In this document: piece by piece, positions 2,733 through 31,271 of the stretch
How the letters are laid out: every line of letters starts with the position of its first letter
How positions within the stretch are numbered: the first letter of the stretch is position 1
UHGV virus genome: UHGV-0319989
Length of the DNA stretch: 38,413 bases
Source of the DNA: a virus
Reading direction: 5' to 3' (one strand)
Notes under the pieces: generated by a model
Databases searched by the model: none
The model's input: the letters and a program-made list of their open reading frames with translations, nothing else
What the model was told of the DNA's origin: nothing
Translations under genes and position numbers: made by a program

Positions 2733-3065
2733 GCCATCCCCTCCTTTTTTTATGGATTATACATCCTATAAACATGTTGTCACCGAAAGGGAAAAGCATA
2801 AACCCAATTTATGTTCCACAAGATGTTCAAAAATCAAACAACCATATAGCTGAGGAGCACAAAAGAGCAAAAGTTTACCAACCCCATATATCCATACAGC
2901 ACATACAATTGACACTACATATGGTATTTTTTAAGTTACGCCTTGCACCATTTCATGATTTTATGTAGATTGTCATCACACGCTGAGATTAAAAAATTCT
3001 ACAATTTTTGTTGATCTTGAGTTTGGTTTTTAGTATAAGTGAGCATGGATTGTAGGAGGCGCAAC

Positions 3066-3416
3066 ATGGTAACTAGCTTTGGTAAGACTCTCAGAAAAAT
3101 GAGAATAGACCGGGGTATGGTGCTCAAAAATATGGCTGATCTGTTAGGCGTTAGTTCGGCTTACTTATCCGCCATTGAATTAGGCAAAAGAGCTATACCG
3201 GACTCATTAGTAAATACGATTGCAACAACTTTTGAGCTTAGCGGACAAGACATCATCAATCTCAAGAAACAGGCAGAGATTTCTCAACCGTCCATTAAGG
3301 TTGATATGTCGGATGCAAATGAGCAGAACAAAGAACTAATGCTTGTTTTTGCTCGTAAATTTAAGGACCTGAGTCCAGAGCAACTCGATAAGCTTAATAA
3401 AATGTTAAAGGACTGA
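3066..3416 (+). CDS. XRE-family helix-turn-helix transcriptional regulator
   Basis: HTH MVLKNMADLLGVSSAYLSAIELGKRAIP. AGGAGG Shine-Dalgarno 6 nt upstream of the ATG at 3066 (the ORF-track start at 3039 lacks an RBS). Confidence 0.8.
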   Translation: MVTSFGKTLRKMRIDRGMVLKNMADLLGVSSAYLSAIELGKRAIPDSLVNTIATTFELSGQDIINLKKQAEISQPSIKVDMSDANEQNKELMLVFARKFKDLSPEQLDKLNKMLKD

Positions 3417-3419
3417 ATA

Positions 3420-3953
3420 ATGATTGCGAAACGAGAACTTGGCCATCGCGTTTCACCTCTCAGCACCAGCATGATTAAATCATACGCTCATCGTCTGAGA
3501 GACGTTCTTCAGATATCAAATCACACATATCTGAGACTGGATGTATTACTAGAAGGTCTTATGGCCTCAGAAAGCATTGAGCTAGAAATTGTTGAAGATC
3601 ATGAACTGCCCAAACGCTATGCAGTGACTTATCCAGATAAGAACAAAATTGTTTTACAGCGATCTGTTTACGATGCAGTGTGCAATGGTGAGAACCATGC
3701 GAGATTCACTGTTGCGCATGAACTTGGTCATTTAGTCATGCATCGCAATCAAAGTATCTATGCACGTAATAAGACTAGTGGAGGGCATAAAATCTATGAA
3801 GACAGCGAATGGCAAGCAGATGTTTTTGCAAGCCACTTCTTAATTGACTCAAGACTAGTTTTGCCCACAATGACTGTTGAAGATATAAGCAAAACATTTG
3901 GTGTCAGTCAACAAGCGGCTGAAACTTGGATGAGAAAAAATGCAAAAAGATAA
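3420..3953 (+). CDS. ImmA/IrrE-family (COG2856-like) zinc metallopeptidase
   Basis: HEXXH motif in FTVAHELGHLVMH with downstream E...SEWQADVFASHFL. ATG 3 nt after the XRE stop, so a coupled XRE-peptidase pair. Confidence 0.75.
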   Translation: MIAKRELGHRVSPLSTSMIKSYAHRLRDVLQISNHTYLRLDVLLEGLMASESIELEIVEDHELPKRYAVTYPDKNKIVLQRSVYDAVCNGENHARFTVAHELGHLVMHRNQSIYARNKTSGGHKIYEDSEWQADVFASHFLIDSRLVLPTMTVEDISKTFGVSQQAAETWMRKNAKR

Positions 3954-4547: not shown

Positions 4548-5417
<870 letters not shown>

Positions 5418-5437
5418 GTCTTTAAGTGATAAGCATA

Positions 5438-5478
5438 AACCGCAGCACGATCTTCTTGCATACGACGTGCTACGGTTT
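5438..5478. repeat. Copy C (short) of the hairpin repeat; likely bidirectional terminator between convergent genes
   Basis: AAA-CCGCAGCACG-(16-nt loop containing TTCTTGCATACGA)-CGTGCTACGG-TTT, a 9/10-bp stem between the GIY-YIG stop (5417) and the invertase stop (5478); shares the core with copies A and B. Confidence 0.55.
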
Positions 5479-6032
5479 CATTTATCTCCGACCGGAAACT
5501 TCTTATACAGTGTCGATATACCAACATCATAGATGATCGCCACCTTCTGGCGAGGAACGCCTGATGCAATTAATCGCCCGGCCTGCGCCCATTGTTCTGG
5601 TGTAAGTTTGGGACGACGTCCACCAATTCGTCCCTGTGCGCGAGCAGCTTCCAGTCCAGCTTTTGTTCGTTCAACAATCAGTTCTCGTTCCATTTCAGCC
5701 AGGGCACCCATCACATGAAAGAAAAAGCGCCCCATTGGGGTACTGGTATCAATTGAATCCGTCAGACTACGAAAGTTGATGCCTCGTTCGTGCAACTCCT
5801 CCACCAGCACGACAAGATGCCGCATACTGCGCCCCAGTCGGTCCAGTTTCCAGACCACCAGCGTGTCACCTGCCGATAATGTCCTGAGCAGCTTTTTCAG
5901 TCCTGGTCTGTCGGACTTTGTACCGCTTATCTTGTCTTCAAAAATCAGCTCACATCCTGCACAGTTCAGCGCATTACGTTGTAGATCTGTGTTCTGGTCA
6001 TTTGTTGACACACGTACATAGCCAATAAGCAT
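5478..6032 (-). CDS. Serine DNA invertase, Hin/Gin/Pin/Cin family (tail-fibre inversion recombinase)
   Basis: N-terminus MLIGYVRVSTNDQ (catalytic Ser motif), resolvase core, C-terminal HTH GVPRQKVAIIYDVGISTLYKKF. GGGAGA SD upstream of the ATG at 6030-6032. Adjacent to the invertible segment. Confidence 0.9.
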   Translation of the reverse strand: MLIGYVRVSTNDQNTDLQRNALNCAGCELIFEDKISGTKSDRPGLKKLLRTLSAGDTLVVWKLDRLGRSMRHLVVLVEELHERGINFRSLTDSIDTSTPMGRFFFHVMGALAEMERELIVERTKAGLEAARAQGRIGGRRPKLTPEQWAQAGRLIASGVPRQKVAIIYDVGISTLYKKFPVGDK

Positions 6033-6086
6033 GGTAGATCTCCCTGACAAAAGCAGGAATGGTGCCATTTGCTCGTTATTTCTGCA

Positions 6087-6112
6087 TTTTCATAAACGTT
6101 GGTTTGGGAGAA
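6087..6112. other. gix/hix-like 26-bp inversion crossover site (invertase-proximal)
   Basis: TTTTCATAAACGTTGGTTTGGGAGAA: two half-sites around an AAAC..GTTT core; its reverse complement matches 7707-7732 at 21/26 positions. Confidence 0.7.
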
Positions 6113-6442
6113 GCCAGATATGTCATTCAGCGAGGAGCTAATGCCAATGGTGCGTGGATACGCTGGTCAGATGGTGCAATAGAAGTCTTTGGAACGGGGG
6201 GTTCTAATGATAATGGACTGGCTAAAGTCGTTTATCCAATTGCGCTACCTAAGCTTTCACGTTTTATCAGCATAGCGGAAAGAATAGGAACGGATTATGG
6301 GGGCACATCTAATAACGTTCACGTTTCAATGATCGTGGATGACCAGGTCACTAATACCGGTTTTTATGTCCGCTGCCAGATGTACGACGGAACACCATCA
6401 ACAAGTGCTTTTTCCTGGAGGGTTTATTGTGCGCCTGTTTAA
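6113..6442 (+). other. Alternative tail-fibre C-terminal variable segment (S'v-like), promoterless in this orientation
   Basis: Open frame continuing from the crossover site (...INVGLGEARY...), matching the ...ENLGLGEG... junction in the expressed tail-fibre gene. Inversion would fuse it to the constant part at 7733-8009. Confidence 0.6.
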
Positions 6443-6626
6443 TCCTGTTACTTTGACTGAAGTAATCCCCGGTCTTCATGACGTGACCGGGGCTGTTGAA
6501 TTACCAGAAGATAACTGGTTTTTTACTGCATCTGAAATCCCTGAAGGAATGGAAATATCTGTTAACGAGAAGGGAGAACCCATTCTGATTGAGATTAAAC
6601 CGTCTCAGGAGGAACTGGCCAGATGA
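6429..6626 (+). CDS. Alternative tail-fibre assembly ORF (tfa'), short, possibly truncated
   Basis: GTG start preceded by GGAGGG. Product VRLFNPVTLTEVIPGLHDVTGAVELPEDNWFFTASEIPEG... reads like a Tfa N-terminus but is only 65 aa and converges into the 3' end of the minus-strand tfa. Confidence 0.4.
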   Translation: MRLFNPVTLTEVIPGLHDVTGAVELPEDNWFFTASEIPEGMEISVNEKGEPILIEIKPSQEELAR

Positions 6627-7215
6627 CATCTGGCGCGGTGCTGGTATCTGTTGCCATCACCGCGTCAGTGTAATCCAGCACGGCGTTAAGTCGGGTGTTT
6701 TCTGCCTGCGTCAGCTTCCGTCCGGCCTGTAATTTCAGTTGAATCAGACTGATGGAAGCCATTGCTGCATCAATCAGTGACTGGCGCTGTGCTTCTGCCG
6801 CTTCTACTGCGGCGCTATGCTGTGCCTCAGTATTCGTCACCCATTTCTCACCATCCCATTTATCATATGGCGTTAACGGGGCGATAGTGGTTGTATTTTC
6901 AGGGTAATCACCCAGAGCTGTGATTTCTTTCGATTCTCCTGTTTCAGTGCTATAGATGATTTCACCGCGATGGTCTGGCACATATTCCCATGAGTTAAAA
7001 TCTGCAGAACGGCAGATTGCATAACCAGCTTTATGTGTAACTGGTGCATCTAAACAAGAACATGCCGGGATGCCGACGCCAACCGCAAGATATTCAGTTG
7101 ATGTGGAAAGATATTCCCGCGTCTTGCTGTCGTAGTTGTATATGACGACTTCACCCGCGACAGTCGCCAGTAGGGCCTCATTCAGTGTGACTGTATTCAT
7201 GGTATCCTCGCGCAT
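6595..7215 (-). CDS. Tail-fibre assembly protein (Tfa/U-like)
   Basis: Typical Tfa C-terminus ...DTSTAPDVIWPVPPETV; TAATG overlap with the tail-fibre stop. Start may instead be the internal ATG at 7200 (MNTVTL...). Confidence 0.8.
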   Translation of the reverse strand: MREDTMNTVTLNEALLATVAGEVVIYNYDSKTREYLSTSTEYLAVGVGIPACSCLDAPVTHKAGYAICRSADFNSWEYVPDHRGEIIYSTETGESKEITALGDYPENTTTIAPLTPYDKWDGEKWVTNTEAQHSAAVEAAEAQRQSLIDAAMASISLIQLKLQAGRKLTQAENTRLNAVLDYTDAVMATDTSTAPDVIWPVPPETV

Positions 7216-8009
7216 TATGCCGCCCTCACGATGTAGTTGAATGCAATATTACGAGGTCTGTTTTCTGTCGCTGTAGGAACAACTCTTGAGACATCCAAAT
7301 TAGCGTAAATATGACGATCTGTCATAGAAACTGATGACTTACCTGTAGATTCAGCTTTTATCACAACGGAATCATACATTCCCTCATCATTCCCAAAAAA
7401 TGCACCAGAGCCATTGCCAAAAAAATACAGTGCTGATATTTCATGCCTTGCACCAATTGTCCCCGTGATATTTCTGATTGCATCTCCCTGAGAGTTCAAT
7501 ATAGTTCGGCCCGAATCAACCCCACGCCCGTCATCCCAGCCGCGAATAAATTCACCGCGTAAATCAGGCAATTTATTTGTCGGGTAAGCCTTTGCCAGTT
7601 CCGGGTATTCTTCAGCAGAAAAAGCCGCACCATTGCATTTCAGCCAGCCTGTTGGCGGAGTGGCTGAAGGCCACGGAACAGGCACCCCAACAGGTAATGC
7701 TGAGCCTTCTCCCAAACCAAGGTTTTCGAGAGCCGTTTTCACCGTGCCATCCGATTTGATATCGCCAAACGGATTCTTGCGGCTTAACAGCAGCGCACGA
7801 AGCGCGGTAAGCAGCTGGTCGTGCCGCGCCTTCTCCAGACTGGCACCGGATGCCTCCACCACGCTACAAAGTTCTTCCTGCAACATGTCAAAGTAGTCAT
7901 CATCCAGATCGGTGGCAGGCGTGCCAGTCTGGGGGTTACCACGGGTAAAACCGTTCTTACCCGCGCCGAACTTATCCTTCTGCGCGGTTTTCGTGTCTAT
8001 ACGATGCAT
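7215..8009 (-). CDS. Tail-fibre protein (constant N-terminus plus currently expressed variable C-terminus)
   Basis: 264 aa, Gly-rich fibre-like sequence; contains the second crossover site at 7707-7732; followed by tfa. Confidence 0.75.
7707..7732. other. gix/hix-like 26-bp inversion crossover site inside the tail-fibre gene
   Basis: TTCTCCCAAACCAAGGTTTTCGAGAG, inverted relative to 6087-6112; together they delimit a ~1.6 kb invertible segment. Confidence 0.7.
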
Positions 8010-8012
8010 GGA

Positions 8013-8597
8013 TTACTCCGGATATTTAAAAATTACGTAGGTATGCGACGGGCAGAGTTTGTTAAGCACGCACTCGACAACGGTGTCGCCCCAGATACGC
8101 AGTGCGGAATCACAGGGATCGCCACATGTCATCCAGGTGGTGTTGGTGGCGGCTGGCATGTTGACCTGCCAGTAATACCGCCATTCCGGCGCATTCACCG
8201 CGTCAGTACAGGCCGATGAGCAGGTGAACGTGCTTTTGTCGTATCGCGTGATGGTAGCGTCTGGTCTGCCCAGGGCAGCAAGCTGTGCAAGGTAAAAATC
8301 CTCGTTGATGCCGCCCGCCAGGTTAACCTTCGCATCCAGTCGTTGCTGACGCTGGCGAAGGGTCTGTGTCCCTGCGGGAATACATTCATCCGGCAGACCG
8401 CACAGACGCTCCCAGCGGTTTATCAGTTCAGTGGTGGTGCGCGGATCCAGCTCCCGCATCAGGGCATCCGCACGCTGATGAACGCGGGTTAATGAAGGTG
8501 CCGCACCGGCAATCGCCGGATCGCTGGCTGACCATGCAGGACCGGGCGGCAACAGTGCCGATAACAGGCGGATGTAATCATCGTTTGTCACGTCCAT
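8013..8597 (-). CDS. Tail/baseplate protein, Mu gp48 / P2 gpI-like (DUF2313-type)
   Basis: 194 aa; position between the baseplate J-like gene and the tail fibre. Confidence 0.6.
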
Positions 8598-9646
8598 GAA
8601 ATCGTCCCCAGAACCGCCAGTTCATTTTTTGCAATGGAGATATTGTCCGCCGGGGCAAGCAACTGATGGCTGTATTCCCCGTTCGCACCGGAAATCGCCT
8701 CACTGATACGCGATACCTTCAGTTCTCCCTGCGGATAACCATCACGCAGCAGGAACGAACGCAACTCGGCGGTGATGGCAGCCCGTATTTCCGGTGTGTC
8801 CGGCGTCACGCGGATATGAAAATCCACTTTATGCGCCACCGGCCTGAATACATACAAATCAGAGCCTGCCACCGGGGCCAGTGGCTCAATGTGTTGTCTT
8901 GCCGCCGTTTCCGTTGATTCTTCCGGAATGGGATTAATCAGGTCACTGCTGGCAATCATCACACCGACAGTTCCCGTTCCCATCCAGTGACGGTATGTCC
9001 ATGCGCGGGTAATGCCGGGCACTTCTTTAGCCCAGACGACATAGTCCCCGTCAGCCCCGCCCTGAGGCGTCCAGTAATACCGCTCAATGACGCGGGCGCG
9101 CCACGTTTCCAGCTCTTCAGTATCGAATCCGCCAGTCAGGGTATCTGCAACACCGGAAGACGGCAGACCATTCACCGGCGTGACCAGGATTAATGACGTA
9201 CCGTCGTCAGCGTTACCGACCGCGCCTGAACTTGAGCAGGCGATCGGCACGCGCAGGACACCACCGGAGCTGGTTGCATCGGCAGTTGCCGTGTACTGAA
9301 CCAGGTCATCGCGCTGAATAACACTCCCGGCGGTCACCTTCAGGCCATCGCTGACACCTTCCCAGCGCATATACCCGCTGGCAGCCGTGGCCCCCTTGCG
9401 CGGACACCGTTTCATCGCAGCATGTCGCGCCAGCCAGGACTCATCGCACAGGTCAGGCAGCATGTTCATTGCCAGATAATCGATGTACCCGTAAACCGTA
9501 TGCAGCGCCGCCGCATACACCTTTGCCCGCACGTCTTCATCCATGCGCCGGAGCGTGTCGCTGACGTCCAGCCTGGCGAATAAATCGTTACGGAGCATAC
9601 TGATATTTTCTGCCAGCGTCGGGCGCTGAAATTCACTGTCCGCCAT
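8588..9646 (-). CDS. Baseplate J-like protein (Mu gp47-like)
   Basis: 352 aa; size and position in a Mu-type baseplate operon. Confidence 0.65.
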
Positions 9647-11685: not shown

Positions 11686-13058
11686 TGCACTGGCACCTTC
11701 AGAGGGATCACCGGCACAAAGCCGGGATGCGTAATGGCATTACGCCGGATAATGTCCGCGTCACGCGCCGCGTTATCAAACCAGGTCGCCGCCAGCACCA
11801 GCGCGGGTAAAACCTCATCCGGTGTGCGCTGAATGATCCGTGCAGACTGTTCAAGGCGCGTGTTGATATCCGCATTCAGATCTGCTTTCACCCGGCGCAG
11901 CGCCAGAAACAGCGCATCACTGGTTGTACGGGACAACTCCTTATCAATTGCCGTATTCAGTGTGTCGCGAATGTCAGTCAGTTCTTCCCACGTCGGCAGG
12001 TCAACCGTGTTTTTCACCGCCGGTGCATTGTTCAGTGCCGGATGCGTGACGGAAGGCCAGCCAGTGCTCTGCGCAGGTGTTGTTGCCTGCCCCACTGCGG
12101 AATTCTGCATCACCGCGGAAGTTGTTGGCGCAGGCAATCGGGTGACGGCATACGCCGCTTCACTGATTGCGGTCGTACGAAGGGTGCTGGCAACCACATT
12201 ACGCTGCTGCGTAGCCGTGGCGGTGGTTTTACTGTCCGTTTTCCAGACGCCGCGCGGTTGCAGATCGCTGCCGAGGCTGACACCGGAAAGCGTTTTGATC
12301 ATGGTGACCAGGTCGCTGGCGTTACCATAAAGGCGTTTCCCGGTACGCCACATTTTCTGCACCTGCTCAACGAGATTTTTGCCTGACGATGGTGGCGGCA
12401 GAAGTACCGAGATATCCCCCTGCAACAGCCTGGCAGCATCCGATACGGCAGAATCCACCACTTTCATCGCATCAGAAACATACCCAAGCATTGTGCTGAC
12501 ATTACCAACGACGTCGTTCTGCACGAAATCCGCCACGCCATCGATACTGAAACCTCTGAAGCTGTCACTGATGCAGTCATCCAGTGCAGAACAGGATGAC
12601 ATCAGCGTCTGCGCCGTCGCCGCACCTGAAGTGGGGTAAGAGAGTTCTCCCGCTTCGACAAACTTCAGGTCAAAGCGGACAATACGCCCTTCACTCTTCG
12701 ATGTGCTGACCCGAACTTCTCCGTCAACACAGACTTTCAGCTCACCGTATGTCGGATGGACAAGCGTGCCGGGACCGGGTTTATTCAGCGCGTCAATCAG
12801 GCGATCGCGCTGGTCAAAGCAGTCATCTCCCACCACATAAGCCGTGATGGACGAGCGAAAAGTGATTTTCCCCAGGTCTTCGGTATAGGGTTTGTCGCGG
12901 TTCGGGTATTCATGTGTTTCCACACGGCGACCGGTTCCCGCACTTTCTTCTTCAACCTTAAACGGCACGCCGCGAAATGACGCGTCCTGAAGTCTGTCAC
13001 GCCAGCCTGAAGACGACGAAAGTAATGAAGGTCGGGTGGGAAATGAGGATAAATCCAT
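11682..13058 (-). CDS. Mu gp43 (N)-like DNA circularisation / tail protein
   Basis: 458 aa; synteny immediately distal to the tape measure gene. Confidence 0.55.
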   Translation of the reverse strand: MDLSSFPTRPSLLSSSSGWRDRLQDASFRGVPFKVEEESAGTGRRVETHEYPNRDKPYTEDLGKITFRSSITAYVVGDDCFDQRDRLIDALNKPGPGTLVHPTYGELKVCVDGEVRVSTSKSEGRIVRFDLKFVEAGELSYPTSGAATAQTLMSSCSALDDCISDSFRGFSIDGVADFVQNDVVGNVSTMLGYVSDAMKVVDSAVSDAARLLQGDISVLLPPPSSGKNLVEQVQKMWRTGKRLYGNASDLVTMIKTLSGVSLGSDLQPRGVWKTDSKTTATATQQRNVVASTLRTTAISEAAYAVTRLPAPTTSAVMQNSAVGQATTPAQSTGWPSVTHPALNNAPAVKNTVDLPTWEELTDIRDTLNTAIDKELSRTTSDALFLALRRVKADLNADINTRLEQSARIIQRTPDEVLPALVLAATWFDNAARDADIIRRNAITHPGFVPVIPLKVPVQ

Positions 13059-13082: not shown

Positions 13083-14990
13083 TTATCGTGGAAAACGAAA
13101 AGGGGAATACCCCACATCGTGCGTGATTTTCATCAGGGGATCGGCTTTGCCCGGTACATCAATTATCTTCATACCTGGCGGAGCATTCTCGAACGTGACT
13201 TTCAGCTCGCTGTGCTGTGTCATGGAAGAAGATGGATTCAACAGCGGAACATTGGGTTTGTACTGACTCAGGCTGGCCTGATACTGCTCGTACTCTTTAC
13301 GATCAAAAAAAGGCGTCCAGTCTGAAGCCAGAAACAGCCCTTTATTATCCAGCCAGTTAACCGTATCTTCAGGAACAACACTTTCCAGAGTATCTTTAAC
13401 CGGCTCATACATCAGGGTTCCCAGAAAACCATATACCCCGGCCTTCCCGATAAAGCCGCGGCCTTTCCCCATCAATCCCGTTTCTGCCGATACCTTCCCC
13501 AGCGTACGCATCTCTCTGGTCACTGCGGTAATGGATTTGGTAACGTCAGCAACCCATTTGGTTGCCATAAACAGGGCAATCGCTTTCAGAACAGTTTCCC
13601 ATCCCCCCATCGCCTGCGCCGTTTCATCCACCACGTGCCAGACTTTTTTTATGACAGGACCTACGGTTTCCCAGTTATCAATAATGAGGTAAGCGCCACC
13701 AACCAGAAGAGCAATCAGCCCCTTAGCAGGCGTCATATTCATCACACCGCCGAGAACTTTCATAATTCTGGACAAAGAGCCTGCAGCGGCTCCCACCGTC
13801 AGTAAGGCCAGACCGATTTTAGCAATGGTCTTAACGAGCTCCGGGTTTTCACGGACAAACGTTCTCACTTCCTCAAGGAGCGGTTTTACCTCTTCAAGAC
13901 CATCATTAACCTCAGGAAGAAACGTTTCCCCCAGCGTGGAAGAAATGGCATCAAGTTGATTTTGCAGAAGTAAAAGCTGGTTTTCCGTCGTCGCTGCCCT
14001 CGAAGCATATTCCTTCTGCATCGAACTGCCATACTGCTGGGAATCCGCAACCCGCCTGAAGTTGGTACGCAACAAATCAAGGTTAGTCAGCAGAGGTGCT
14101 ATCGCGCCCAGAGACTCTTTCCCGAACAGGGCATTCAGCACAGCTGCCTGTTTTTCTTTGGGCACTTTAGCCATCGCATCCAGTACAGACAGCATGGTTC
14201 CCCGGGCATCTTTCTGCATATCAGCAGCTAATTTCTTCGGATTGATCCGCAGAAAACGTAATGCCTGTTTCTGCGATTTTGTCGCGGAATTTCCCGCGGT
14301 CAGGGAAAGCATGAAGTTCTTGATCCCTGTGGCGGCAATTTCTGACTCCACGCCCATCCCGGCAATGGTTGCCCCCATTGCCGCGATTTCGCCGGAAGCC
14401 ACACCTGCAACACCACCTAAAGGACCAATACGCGTAACAATATCGGAGATTTTCTTCGCATTCGCCGGGCCGGTATTACCAAGGTAGTTGATTTTGTCAG
14501 CCAGCCCGGCCACTTCATCCTGCGTCATATTAAACGCAGTACGCCACTGGGCCATCATCTGCCCGGACTCTTCAGCCGTGGTATCAAAGGCCACGCCCAT
14601 CTTCACCGCATCAGTGGCAAACTGCATCAGTTCATCACGTGCAATCCCGGCCTGACCGCCAGCCGCCACAATTTCCGCGATCCCGTCTGCAGACATGGGA
14701 AGCTCAGTAGACAAAGCGCGTACCTGCTCCGTCATGGCCTTAAACGCATCCGGCGTATCCAGACCGTCTACCACTTTGCGGACATCAGCCATCTTCGATT
14801 CAAGGGTGATGGCTGATTTTACAGGGAGTGCCAGTGCCCCCATTATTGCAGTACCCGCCCCGGCAGCGCCCAGAGCAAGGCTGGAGACTTCTTTCTGAAA
14901 CCCCTTAAGCTGACGCTGCATACCTTTAAGCGGGCCGGACAGCCTGTCAACGGCGGTGATGATGGCTTTCAGCTGAAAATTATCAGCCAT
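13083..14990 (-). CDS. Tail tape measure protein
   Basis: 635 aa, Ala/Gly-rich helical sequence with the typical TMP core (...AAGGQAGIARDELMQFATDAVKMGVAFDTT...); follows the chaperone gene. Confidence 0.85.
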   Translation of the reverse strand: MADNFQLKAIITAVDRLSGPLKGMQRQLKGFQKEVSSLALGAAGAGTAIMGALALPVKSAITLESKMADVRKVVDGLDTPDAFKAMTEQVRALSTELPMSADGIAEIVAAGGQAGIARDELMQFATDAVKMGVAFDTTAEESGQMMAQWRTAFNMTQDEVAGLADKINYLGNTGPANAKKISDIVTRIGPLGGVAGVASGEIAAMGATIAGMGVESEIAATGIKNFMLSLTAGNSATKSQKQALRFLRINPKKLAADMQKDARGTMLSVLDAMAKVPKEKQAAVLNALFGKESLGAIAPLLTNLDLLRTNFRRVADSQQYGSSMQKEYASRAATTENQLLLLQNQLDAISSTLGETFLPEVNDGLEEVKPLLEEVRTFVRENPELVKTIAKIGLALLTVGAAAGSLSRIMKVLGGVMNMTPAKGLIALLVGGAYLIIDNWETVGPVIKKVWHVVDETAQAMGGWETVLKAIALFMATKWVADVTKSITAVTREMRTLGKVSAETGLMGKGRGFIGKAGVYGFLGTLMYEPVKDTLESVVPEDTVNWLDNKGLFLASDWTPFFDRKEYEQYQASLSQYKPNVPLLNPSSSMTQHSELKVTFENAPPGMKIIDVPGKADPLMKITHDVGYSPFRFPR

Positions 14991-28783: not shown

Positions 28784-28899
28784 AAGCTGTGTGGCGAAGT
28801 AACCACTCTTAACAGATTATGATAGTTTTTGCGTACGCGTTAGTAATTTATTATGCTCTTTACAATTGTTAGCTTAACCGCATGGAATTGACCAAAAAA

Positions 28900-30048
28900 A
28901 TGAGCAAAGCAAGCATACGCCACGTAATCGTTCATGAGCTCTTAAAAGAATCTAATAAAGACTTCGATCACTCCAAACCATACAATCTTCGTGATACAGA
29001 ACTAGATAAAACAAATGATATAGTAAAAAAATTAGTAGACGGTGTTATTGATTTGTATGGTTCAAAAGGGAACTCAGCGCATTATGGTGTTTTTATTAAA
29101 AATAAAACAAAGCAAGGCCCTATACCAGAACTATTTTATAAATACTCTTTAGTTCAACAATCTGTTTCAAGTGATTTCATTGAATTATCGAAGGAAGTTA
29201 TGAAACAAATGTATAAATCTGCTCAAGAGCAGATTTGGGCTTCTGGAGGATATGTTGTTTTTACTGATTATATTTTATCTGGTTTCCGTTATCTATTGGT
29301 TACAATGATCAAAAAAACTAATGGCGTAACTATTAGTGAAAATTTAGAGCCAGAGGAAATGATTCACTTAGAACTTGGTAATATTAACCAAGCAGCAAAA
29401 ATAAATTTCAGATATTATGAAGAATACCAAAAAGCAGATGACTTAAAAAAAACAGACTTAAGTTATCTAAGCTTTATAAGCAAAACTACGGGACAGTCAG
29501 CGGCAGCATATTTTATAGCAGCATTAGGATGTGACAAGGGGATTGCTTCAGCAGGTGCAACCCGTAAGTTACCAGATGAAATAAGGCGTTTCTTTAAGAA
29601 AGAACCTCTTTTAAAAAATCAAGCAGAGTCATTTAGAAATGATGTTATCAAATACTTAGAAAAGCAATTTGACAACGAGCACTCTGCAAGGCTTTCTGAT
29701 ATCGAATCGCTTGCTTCAGGCCATATGTCCGATTTAAAAGAGGAAGAAAAAACAGAACTTGTTGATAAATTAATGAAACACCTCAATAGTGAGGAAGTCA
29801 GAATCCCATCAGAGTTCGTAATCAATAAAAACTCCTTAGATAAAATCCGCAATGTGATATATAAAACCCCATCATTGAGCTTTCACTTCGACAAGGATTT
29901 ACTCGGTGTCACAACTGATGCTAAAATATATTATGATGACGAAAACCAAAGCCTAACATTTAATAATTTGCCTGTTGAAGCATTAACTAAGATAAGAAGA
30001 GCGTTGAAAGAAACTGATAACCCGAGTAATGAAGAAGATAAAGAATGA
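28900..30048 (+). CDS. NdpA/YejK-like nucleoid-associated-protein-family homologue (candidate sensor of a cargo two-gene module)
   Basis: Collinear similarity by eye to E. coli YejK: N-terminus IRHVIVHELLKE versus YejK INQIALHQLIKR, and core GGYVVFTDYILSGFRYLLVTMIKKTNGVTISENLE. AT-rich, plus strand inside a minus-strand operon. An in-frame ATG at 28882 is an alternative start. Confidence 0.6.
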   Translation: MSKASIRHVIVHELLKESNKDFDHSKPYNLRDTELDKTNDIVKKLVDGVIDLYGSKGNSAHYGVFIKNKTKQGPIPELFYKYSLVQQSVSSDFIELSKEVMKQMYKSAQEQIWASGGYVVFTDYILSGFRYLLVTMIKKTNGVTISENLEPEEMIHLELGNINQAAKINFRYYEEYQKADDLKKTDLSYLSFISKTTGQSAAAYFIAALGCDKGIASAGATRKLPDEIRRFFKKEPLLKNQAESFRNDVIKYLEKQFDNEHSARLSDIESLASGHMSDLKEEEKTELVDKLMKHLNSEEVRIPSEFVINKNSLDKIRNVIYKTPSLSFHFDKDLLGVTTDAKIYYDDENQSLTFNNLPVEALTKIRRALKETDNPSNEEDKE

Positions 30049-31271
30049 ATGATTTTAGTATAATAGTTAATCTGTATAGATTATCAAGCTATCCTCATTT
30101 TGACGGGGCTAAGTTTTCTGCGCGTATAGCTTATAAGGCAGACGTAAAATCATTGTTCAAAAGAATTTTGAACCCTACTTTTCAAGCTGGTACAGCTGAC
30201 GAAATAGAGGTGGATGGTCATTTAATTTATGATTATGAAGACTTTCCTGAAAAGGGAAATTTTCTTACATACTCGTTTAAAATTTCACAAGGAAGTGCGA
30301 ATCGTTTTTATAAAAATAAAAACGAGTTTGTAAAAATAAACACGCTCAAGAAAGGCATAATGCCAGAGTATTTCTATATTATAGAGGATGATTTCTATTC
30401 ATTAGAAACACCAAAACCTTCTTATATCCAAAAAATTGAGGACATTTGTGAGCTAATCAATGCTCTTTCCATGCTTGCTCATTTCCATGATATAAAAAAA
30501 GATAGCAAAGGTACATTTTATCGTTTAGTCTTTATTTTAAACTCAGAGTCTAAATCTTCTTCTGCTGTAATTGAAACAAATATTACAGAAGAAATTTTTA
30601 ATGATAAAACAGTAAATACTCAGTTAGTTAAAACATTAGTAAGTAGTGAAGCTACTACTGATGCCCATCACATTGAAAAGATTAACACTTTCAGAAACAC
30701 AGTTATTGAGTATGTTAATAAAAATGGAAATTCCTTTGTCGAGTTAATTAACAAGTGGGATTTCATATGCGAACTTTATACGAACAACTTAGCTGCTTAT
30801 ATGTCGGCATTTTCTTTTCATAAAGCAAGGAAAGAAGTTGTTGATGCTGAACTCGATTACTCAGAAAAACTGTCAAAAATAATTTCAGAAATTTCTAACA
30901 AAGCTCTTGCAATACCTATTTCACTAGCTGGTTCAATTGCTATTTTCAAATTAACAACAAAAACTGATTGGATTATTGCTTTAATTGGATTGATTATCAC
31001 AGCAATAATAACATCTGCAATGATTGTGTCACAAAAAAAACAACTCGCTCGTATTTCACACTCTAAAGAAATACTTTTTGGACAATTAAGATATAGAATA
31101 AAGGATGACACCAGCGATCTTAAAGAGAGCTTAGAAGAGGCTATTAAAAAATTAAATGACAATGAGGATTTTTGTCATAAGGTGCTTGACAGTTTATTAT
31201 CACTAGCATGGATGCCTACATTCATAGGCATCATCGGTATTTTATTTAAATTAATGCCAAATATTACTTGA
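30045..31271 (+). CDS. Hypothetical protein with three C-terminal transmembrane helices (candidate membrane effector)
   Basis: 408 aa; ATGA start/stop overlap with the upstream gene; predicted TM segments ALAIPISLAGSIAIFKL, WIIALIGLIITAIITSAMIV, TFIGIIGILFKLM; no recognisable catalytic motif. AT-rich. Confidence 0.6.
   Translation: MNDFSIIVNLYRLSSYPHFDGAKFSARIAYKADVKSLFKRILNPTFQAGTADEIEVDGHLIYDYEDFPEKGNFLTYSFKISQGSANRFYKNKNEFVKINTLKKGIMPEYFYIIEDDFYSLETPKPSYIQKIEDICELINALSMLAHFHDIKKDSKGTFYRLVFILNSESKSSSAVIETNITEEIFNDKTVNTQLVKTLVSSEATTDAHHIEKINTFRNTVIEYVNKNGNSFVELINKWDFICELYTNNLAAYMSAFSFHKARKEVVDAELDYSEKLSKIISEISNKALAIPISLAGSIAIFKLTTKTDWIIALIGLIITAIITSAMIVSQKKQLARISHSKEILFGQLRYRIKDDTSDLKESLEEAIKKLNDNEDFCHKVLDSLLSLAWMPTFIGIIGILFKLMPNIT

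Follow-up and report, generated by a model that had tools for sequence, protein, structure and literature searches.

Does the tail fiber gene of this prophage carry a DNA inversion switch, and does that switch still turn? The locus lies at positions 5478 to 8009 of UHGV virus genome UHGV-0319989 (38,413 nucleotides, analyzed whole and called the window here), where pin, a gene for a serine DNA invertase, stands beside a ~1.6-kb segment that carries two alternative fiber tips between inverted 26-bp crossover sites. A reading of the letters alone (the original prediction) had proposed that inversion of this segment reversibly switches host range. Here, we report that the locus is a member of the Hin/Gin/Cin/Pin family and an allele of the PinE/P-segment locus of the e14 remnant in Escherichia coli K-12, and that the same prophage is present in both orientations in public assemblies. 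It is very probable that this allele of the e14-family switch is functional and that a Pin/Fis invertasome exchanges its tip-plus-accessory cassettes; judged by its sequence, the copy in the window is almost certainly active.

Results

Contigs encoding exactly the same Pin protein were fetched from public assemblies and aligned to both isomers, the window as it stands and the window with positions 6099-7720 inverted in silico. One contig (L014, from a European Nucleotide Archive [ENA] assembly) shared 8,523 bp with the window at 100.000% identity and in its orientation. Another (L013, E. coli GCA_035583635.1) gave a single 8,523-bp high-scoring segment pair against the inverted window (99.894% identity, 0 gaps); against the window as it stands, the alignment broke into three pieces, 6094-7725 being reversed. 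The left flank of L013 was 100% identical over 4,636 bp, same cargo genes included. Inversion therefore occurs in nature, the same prophage being found in both orientations at at least 99.9% identity. The search for both orientations in sequence data, suggested with the original prediction, was thus answered by public assemblies, and the reversibility that it had proposed is supported; the part concerning host range stays an analogy with phages Mu and P1, weighed below. In the natural flipped isomers, the left breakpoint falls in 6094-6113 and the right one in 7706-7725, and the positions in L013 place the breakpoints inside both 26-bp sites.

More distant flipped isomers were found in E. coli FDN-24 (L003) and in two further contigs (L010 and L011), which are collinear with the inverted window over 3,299 bp. 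The exact 210-amino-acid (aa) fiber predicted for the inverted state is encoded on 88 public contigs, and the exact 181-aa pin-proximal open reading frame (ORF) predicted for that state is also in public records. Among 5,426 complete E. coli genomes, more than 3,600 match the region, in which the Prokaryotic Genome Annotation Pipeline (PGAP) names the orthologues pinE, ymfQ, and tfaE; each of the four junction types (either tip, on either side) is represented in these genomes. For the e14 P segment itself, clonal MG1655-derived cultures have been found with mixed orientations by sequencing and PCR (PMC4272514), and quantitative PCR (qPCR) gave ~30% inverted segment in the wild type and 49% with PinE overproduction (PMC12529663).

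In a separate observation, the last 7 kb of one contig (L015; GCA_900478465.1, UCTY01000021.1) held fragments of the locus that point both ways. A flipped copy, matching inverted window 5999-7815 at 100% identity, was joined to a copy in the window orientation (6658 down to 4450), with a third piece (7177-8375) on the far side of an AraC gene. The arrangement resembles an assembly tangle from a mixed-orientation culture or a fold-back artifact.

The two inverted crossover sites lie at the predicted coordinates and match each other at the predicted 21/26 positions. The distal site, within the fiber gene, is at 7707-7732 (plus strand, TTCTCCCAAACCAAGGTTTTCGAGAG; core 7719-7720), and the pin-proximal site is at 6087-6112 (minus-strand reading, TTCTCCCAAACCAACGTTTATGAAAA; core 6099-6100). 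Each is identical at 26/26 positions to its counterpart in the e14 P segment of K-12 MG1655 (L005), the distal site to that in stfP/ycfK (position 11779) and the proximal site to that beside pinE (position 13606). A repeat finder ranked the pair as the top inverted repeat in 5300-8300 (20-nt core, 95% complementary, 1,592 nt between arms). The 14-nt half-site plus core (TTCTCCCAAACCAA) is present in two copies in the 38-kb window, one per strand, and the full 26-mer had 0 matches in 100 shuffled sequences. Half-site palindromy is 9/12 at 7707-7732 and 8/12 at 6087-6112 around a common AA/TT core, which is AA in both sites when the half-site is read first. The distance from the center of the pin-proximal site to the pin ATG is 67.5 bp, identical to that in e14 and to that between gixR and gin in Mu. 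Their layout is the one to be expected of hix/gix/cix/pix sites. A relaxed regular expression (AAACC-NN-SGTTT core) found no third crossover site in the 38-kb window; with exactly two sites there, a multisite or shufflon-type layout (p15B Min, shufflons) was ruled out.

Measured from core dinucleotide to core dinucleotide, the invertible segment spans 6099-7720 (1,622 bp). The TT of the distal core is nt 290-291 of the fiber gene and occupies positions 2 and 3 of the Leu codon CTT, number 97. Each cassette carries along its inner half-site, made up of the GLGE codons (98-101). The crossover had been placed in these GLGE codons, which is near the mark; its exact place is one codon upstream.

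The invertase gene pin (5478-6032, minus strand) encodes 184 aa and is an orthologue of PinE, in keeping with the Pin/Gin-type assignment made beforehand. The protein contains Pfam Resolvase (E value, 1.3e-51) and HTH_7 (4.1e-13) domains and matches PHROG 125, "DNA invertase" (4.3e-97), as well as the solved structure of Gin (3uj3; 3.5e-94 over residues 1-181), with amino acid identities of 95.7% to K-12 PinE (e14), 81% to P1 Cin, and 78% to Mu Gin. Its start is likely the ATG at 6032 (MLIGYVRVS...), with the longer ORF to 6068 being an upstream extension. The catalytic residues Ser9 (in YVRVS), Arg7, Asp64, Arg65, and Arg68 are all there. Residues K46/K47/R50 and Q150/R153/L154 of Pin correspond, with an offset of -1, to K47/R48/K51 and Q151/R154/L155 of Hin; K47, R/K48, and R/K51 together with Q151, R154, and L155 of Hin are the invertase-specific contacts to Fis and the enhancer (PMC3798978).

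In some E. coli, namely FDN-24 (L003, 2100-2663) and L009 (7974-8537), these two cassettes and an unchanged distal site are served by a much more divergent invertase (55% aa identity). The outer half of its proximal site is different (TTCTCCCAAACCAACCTTTCAAATAT in L003, and one base away from this in L009). Cassettes and invertases have been exchanged independently.

The 5' part of the invertase gene, where a Fis-binding enhancer had been suspected, contains a putative recombinational enhancer (sis) at pin nt +19..+90 (5943-6014, minus strand). In an ungapped alignment, this stretch matches at 56/72 positions the 72-bp "enhancer of Cin-mediated C-segment inversion" annotated at cin nt +19..+90 in the P1 record (AF234172), and it matches gin at 55/72 and K-12 pinE at 69/72. 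Johnson et al. are said to have described, in 1987, an enhancer with two Fis sites ~48 bp apart. Two candidate 15-bp Fis sites (G-N13-C / KNNYRNNWNNYRNNM) are located here at +22/23..+36/37 (window, ~5996-6011) and +71..+85 (5948-5962), their core centers 48 to 49 bp apart and with TAATG between them, as in hin (PMC3798978). The center of the proximal candidate core is ~95 bp from the center of the crossover site; the native proximal Fis site of Hin is ~99 to 100 bp from its crossover site (PMC3798978). Homology supports the view that inversion here would depend on Fis and the enhancer.

The constant 5' part of the tail fiber gene comprises codons 1-96 and the first base of codon 97 (7721-8009, minus strand); residues 1 to ~101-105 of the fiber are 96% identical to K-12 StfP and 98% identical to the FDN-24 fiber. 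The expressed variable tip follows in the rest of codon 97 and up to codon 264 (7218-7720, minus strand). It has a tail-collar domain (Pfam Collar; E value, 1.3e-15), is 58% identical to the C terminus of K-12 StfE and 99.4% identical to the silent copy in FDN-24, and resembles the short tail fiber chains 9cuy_c (1e-27) and T4 gp37 2xgf. Its accessory gene, tfa (6595-7215, minus strand), encodes a TfaE-like tail fiber assembly protein (Pfam Caudo_TAP, 9.6e-31; PHROG 105, 6.7e-94; 85% identical to K-12 TfaE). The true start of tfa is probably the second ATG, at 7200 (201 aa), and not that at 7215 (206 aa), because homologues are called at 200 to 201 aa and GAGGA stands 5 nt before the second ATG.

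The alternative tip (6059-6442, plus strand), currently unexpressed, comprises 113 aa from GLGE (6101) to the stop codon. Its C-terminal domain is gp53-like, with a Pfam Gp53-like_C match under the gathering cutoff (5e-4) and matches to PHROG 2557 (6e-16) and 2712, which hold virion or tail fiber C termini. It is 95.7% identical to the C terminus of the expressed 210-aa fiber of FDN-24; among solved structures, none resembling this tip was found. A 13-aa leader ORF (MVPFARYFCIFIN) precedes the tip, starting in the spacer between pin and its site, and is homologous to the N terminus of K-12 StfE (MPFACYFFIFIN).

In-silico inversion of 6099-7720 keeps the reading frame and converts the 264-aa fiber into a 210-aa fiber, in agreement with the proposal of two alternative in-frame C-terminal cassettes within ~1.6 kb. 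The present state thus has a 264-aa fiber with the collar tip and the TfaE-like Caudo_TAP protein as accessory, and the inverted state has a 210-aa fiber with the gp53-like tip and, as accessory, the product of a 65-aa ORF, orf65 (6429-6626, plus strand). The genes tfa and orf65 converge with a 32-bp overlap; the overlap between tfaP and tfaE of e14 is 29 bp. As regards database records, several NCBI entries for the 264-aa fiber are misnamed "integrase," an error propagated among E. coli assemblies, and annotation pipelines label the silent cassette and orf65 "hypothetical," though these are the second half of the fiber switch.

Conserved and in the position of a second tail fiber assembly gene, orf65 matched no Pfam family, Caudo_TAP (PF02413) included. 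It covers positions 1-66 of the 145-position phrog_5400 (E value, 2.6e-23) and is weakly similar to phrog_188, "tail fiber assembly" (3.6e-4). By blastp, it shares 35% identity across 43 aa with the N-terminal, fiber-binding domain of a Tfa (139 aa) that occupies the same position in E. coli D1. Its homologues (n = 141) are mostly 57 to 65 aa long, although some are called from farther upstream and reach as much as 90 aa, and come from Escherichia, Enterobacter, Salmonella, Cronobacter, Citrobacter, Kosakonia, Hafnia, and Yersinia, with 13 invariant positions. An accidental truncation of a ~140-aa Tfa was ruled out, as most homologues are 57 to 65 aa across many genera. The AlphaFold2 (AF2) model is confident (predicted local distance difference test [pLDDT], 86.5), and the predicted fold found no counterpart in the PDB; in BFVD, there was a weak match to a 60-aa "tail fiber assembly protein" (probability, 0.90; E value, 0.11). 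The family, unannotated as yet and strongly conserved in the Enterobacteriaceae, always accompanies the gp53-like fiber tip. The tfa' gene postulated for the alternative cassette is therefore right by position and by weak similarity, and wrong if taken as a full Tfa, given its 65 aa and the missing Caudo_TAP match; a role for orf65 as tfa' outside the Caudo_TAP family is plausible.

The surroundings are those of a prophage. The fiber gene follows ymfQ (8013-8597; 98.5% identical to K-12 YmfQ) and the baseplate J gene (8588-9646), and beyond baseplate J/gp47 come homologues of gp46, gp45, and gp44. The window also encodes tape measure, sheath, capsid, portal, and terminase proteins and a Mu-type baseplate, in addition to lysis genes, a replication O-like protein, and a CI-like repressor. 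It is apparently a complete e14-like myovirus prophage of E. coli with the switch at the end of the tail operon, and apparently a complete relative of the phage that gave rise to the 15-kb e14 remnant.

Directly downstream of pin lies PD-T4-3 (4644-5417, plus strand), which encodes a GIY-YIG protein (PADLOC, 2.4e-140; Pfam LEM-3_GIY-YIG) known as an antiphage defense protein and which occupies the position of mcrA in K-12 e14. The end of the prophage is a variable cargo hotspot (613-1557, plus; 1971-2732, minus; 3039-3416, plus; 3420-3953, plus) containing a CapH/CapP-like pair (helix-turn-helix [HTH] protein and ImmA/IrrE metallopeptidase), a BRO-N protein, and a 314-aa ORF. The last of these had no Pfam or PADLOC family and one weak PHROG match (function unknown; 5e-4). 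Since defense-type cargo is found in the same context in other E. coli strains (retron Ec48, S1 peptidase, or AAA ATPase), the 314-aa ORF is a candidate uncharacterized defense gene. At the boundary of the late and early regions (28882-31271, plus strand), a 388-aa NA37-family nucleoid-associated protein and a 408-aa protein (phrog_5023, function unknown) are encoded by a gene pair that looks like a moron or cargo island.

Discussion

The locus resembles e14 of K-12 most closely. The two share both crossover sites, an invertase that is 95.7% identical, the site-to-pin spacing, a spacer with ~90% nucleotide identity, and a gene order that runs from baseplate J through ymfQ, a fiber gene with a 96-aa constant part, and the segment to pin and cargo; YmfQ (98.5%), the constant fiber N terminus (96%), and the TfaE-type chaperone (85%) are likewise close. 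They differ in that K-12 holds a 15-kb remnant and the window an apparently complete prophage, and in that the site centers are 1,620 bp apart in the window and 1,827 bp apart in K-12 (the K-12 segment has been reported as 1,797 bp between repeats; PMC12529663). The StfP-tip/TfaP cassette of K-12 is replaced here by an unrelated gp53-like tip with orf65, the collar tip is just 58% identical to the StfE tip, and the expressed position is taken by the TfaE-type cassette. As cargo, K-12 carries mcrA, whereas the window carries PD-T4-3 and others.

With Mu Gin and P1 Cin, the locus shares related invertases (78% and 81%), 26-bp sites with an AAACC-NN-GGTTT center, a position in the 5' coding region for the enhancer (putative here), and a constant fiber N terminus followed by two convergent tip-plus-chaperone cassettes. 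Mu also has the 67.5-bp distance from site to gene and the divergent arrangement, whereas cin of P1 reads toward its segment. In Mu and P1, a switch of host range by inversion has been demonstrated experimentally. Their segments are longer (3 to 4.2 kb), their fibers far longer (Mu S, 504 aa) than the 264 and 210 aa here, and their outer site sequences unlike those of the window. Hin of Salmonella belongs to the same Fis/enhancer-dependent subclass, with conserved basic residues in helix B, conserved Q/R/L residues in the DNA-binding domain (PMC3798978), and a site-to-enhancer distance of ~100 bp (here, to the putative enhancer); it sits inside its own segment and flips a promoter, whereas in the window the exchanged DNA is coding sequence and pin is external to the segment. 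P2-like and other prophages with invertase-linked tail fiber cassettes (e.g., Escherichia phage 500465-1, Salmonella phage MET_P1_103_31, and Klebsiella Kp48xx) have invertase and cassette DNA that is 83 to 86% identical over about half of the region, and constant fiber parts and virion modules of their own.

On the Hin/Gin paradigm, PinE dimers would bind both 26-bp sites and host Fis would bind the putative enhancer, within the initial ~90 nt of pin, with the complexes of PinE and Fis forming an invertasome on supercoiled DNA. Ser9 would cut both sites at the 2-bp core, one pair of subunits would rotate by 180 degrees, and the ends would be rejoined with 6099-7720 inverted. The constant 96 N-terminal residues, presumed to attach to the baseplate, would thereby be fused either to the collar tip, coexpressed with the TfaE-like chaperone (264 aa), or to the gp53-like tip, coexpressed with the 65-aa accessory protein (210 aa). 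A lysogenic population would then release virions of two receptor specificities. For this locus, we infer the dependence on Fis, the function of both fibers, and the difference in host range; by analogy, the two tips may recognize different hosts.

Several points weigh against an active two-fiber switch in this copy. The two orientations come from separate public assemblies. Junction counts in the 5,426 complete genomes (collar tip, 215 on the fiber side and 737 on the pin side; gp53-like tip, 5 on the fiber side and 70 on the pin side) were rejected as an orientation frequency on the pin side, where other prophages with related invertases are counted too. A sigma-70 consensus scan found no pin promoter in the 54-bp spacer, so that pin may be unexpressed here; the promoter scan is uninformative, with a single site (inside pin) in 5300-8700 where chance alone would give 4.7. 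Between this Pin and K-12 PinE there are 8 differences, R81H among them. These last two points would suit a frozen relic, with the architecture kept and pin inactive or unexpressed, and yet we consider such a relic very unlikely. None of the 8 substitutions is at a known catalytic or Fis-contact residue, the His of R81H is also present in the L003 invertase, and the ORF is intact; the sites are identical to the active sites of e14, on which other invertases can act in trans (PMC12529663), and contigs with exactly this Pin exist in both orientations. We give next to no credence to the idea that the inverted repeat is merely coding sequence (the LGLGE motif) shared by diverged fiber fragments. 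The best-conserved 14 nt do encode GLGE in both cassettes; however, on the pin side the resemblance to the site consensus extends into the noncoding outer half-site (8/12 palindromic), the sites equal those of e14, and the idea is refuted by natural isomers that break exactly at the sites.

A further point against two working fibers is that orf65 ends after its N-terminal-like part, without the conserved C-terminal Caudo_TAP domain, so that assembly of the alternative fiber may be unusual; according to the part of PMC9608196 that cites North et al. 2019, this C-terminal Tfa domain mediates trimerization and assembly. The segment could then be an ON/OFF switch, with a working fiber in the collar/TfaE orientation alone and a dead end in the gp53-like orientation. 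We judge this to be quite unlikely, because a family with homologues in at least 8 genera of Enterobacterales, invariant residues, and a confident predicted fold points to a selected function and not to a truncation; moreover, the 88 contigs with the exact 210-aa fiber have it in the expressed position, and the pair of gp53-like tip and orf65 recurs in many genomes. It is unlikely, too, that the switch serves the host in place of the virion, the tip on the pin-side leader ORF (6059-) being a free receptor-masking fragment that blocks other phages. Inversion in e14 is reported to create such a protein, StfE2, in which the other tip is fused to the pin-side leader and which prevents adsorption of T2 (PMC12529663); the window retains the leader together with its start (MVPFARYFCIFINVGLGE versus MPFACYFFIFINVGLGE in K-12, with AGGA just upstream), and pin is flanked by defense genes, PD-T4-3 and the CapH/CapP-like pair. 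However, the spacer as a whole is ~90% identical to that of e14, so conservation of the leader carries no independent weight; the sigma-70 consensus scan gave no promoter-like site for the leader ORF, and at loci with the divergent invertase (L003 and L004) the silent cassette is called from LGE, without a leader. The prophage looks complete, so a virion function is available, and roles for host and virion are compatible.

A Pin/Fis switch of two fiber tips is thus the reading that we retain. Its general importance is limited: Pin/e14, Gin/Mu, and Cin/P1 are textbook switches, and here we have an allele of Pin/e14, a system described before along with its sites and its inversion; the exact proteins, too, are already in public databases. 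The locus shows the e14 remnant of K-12 in complete form, and L013 and L014 make a clean natural pair of the same prophage in two states. Possible, though doubtful, is that the uncharacterized tip folds with an orf65 consisting of the N-terminal domain only, in place of a two-domain Tfa chaperone, and that the leader ORF expresses the silent tip as a receptor-masking protein; if true, one inversion would simultaneously toggle the host range of the virion and the surface protection of the lysogen.

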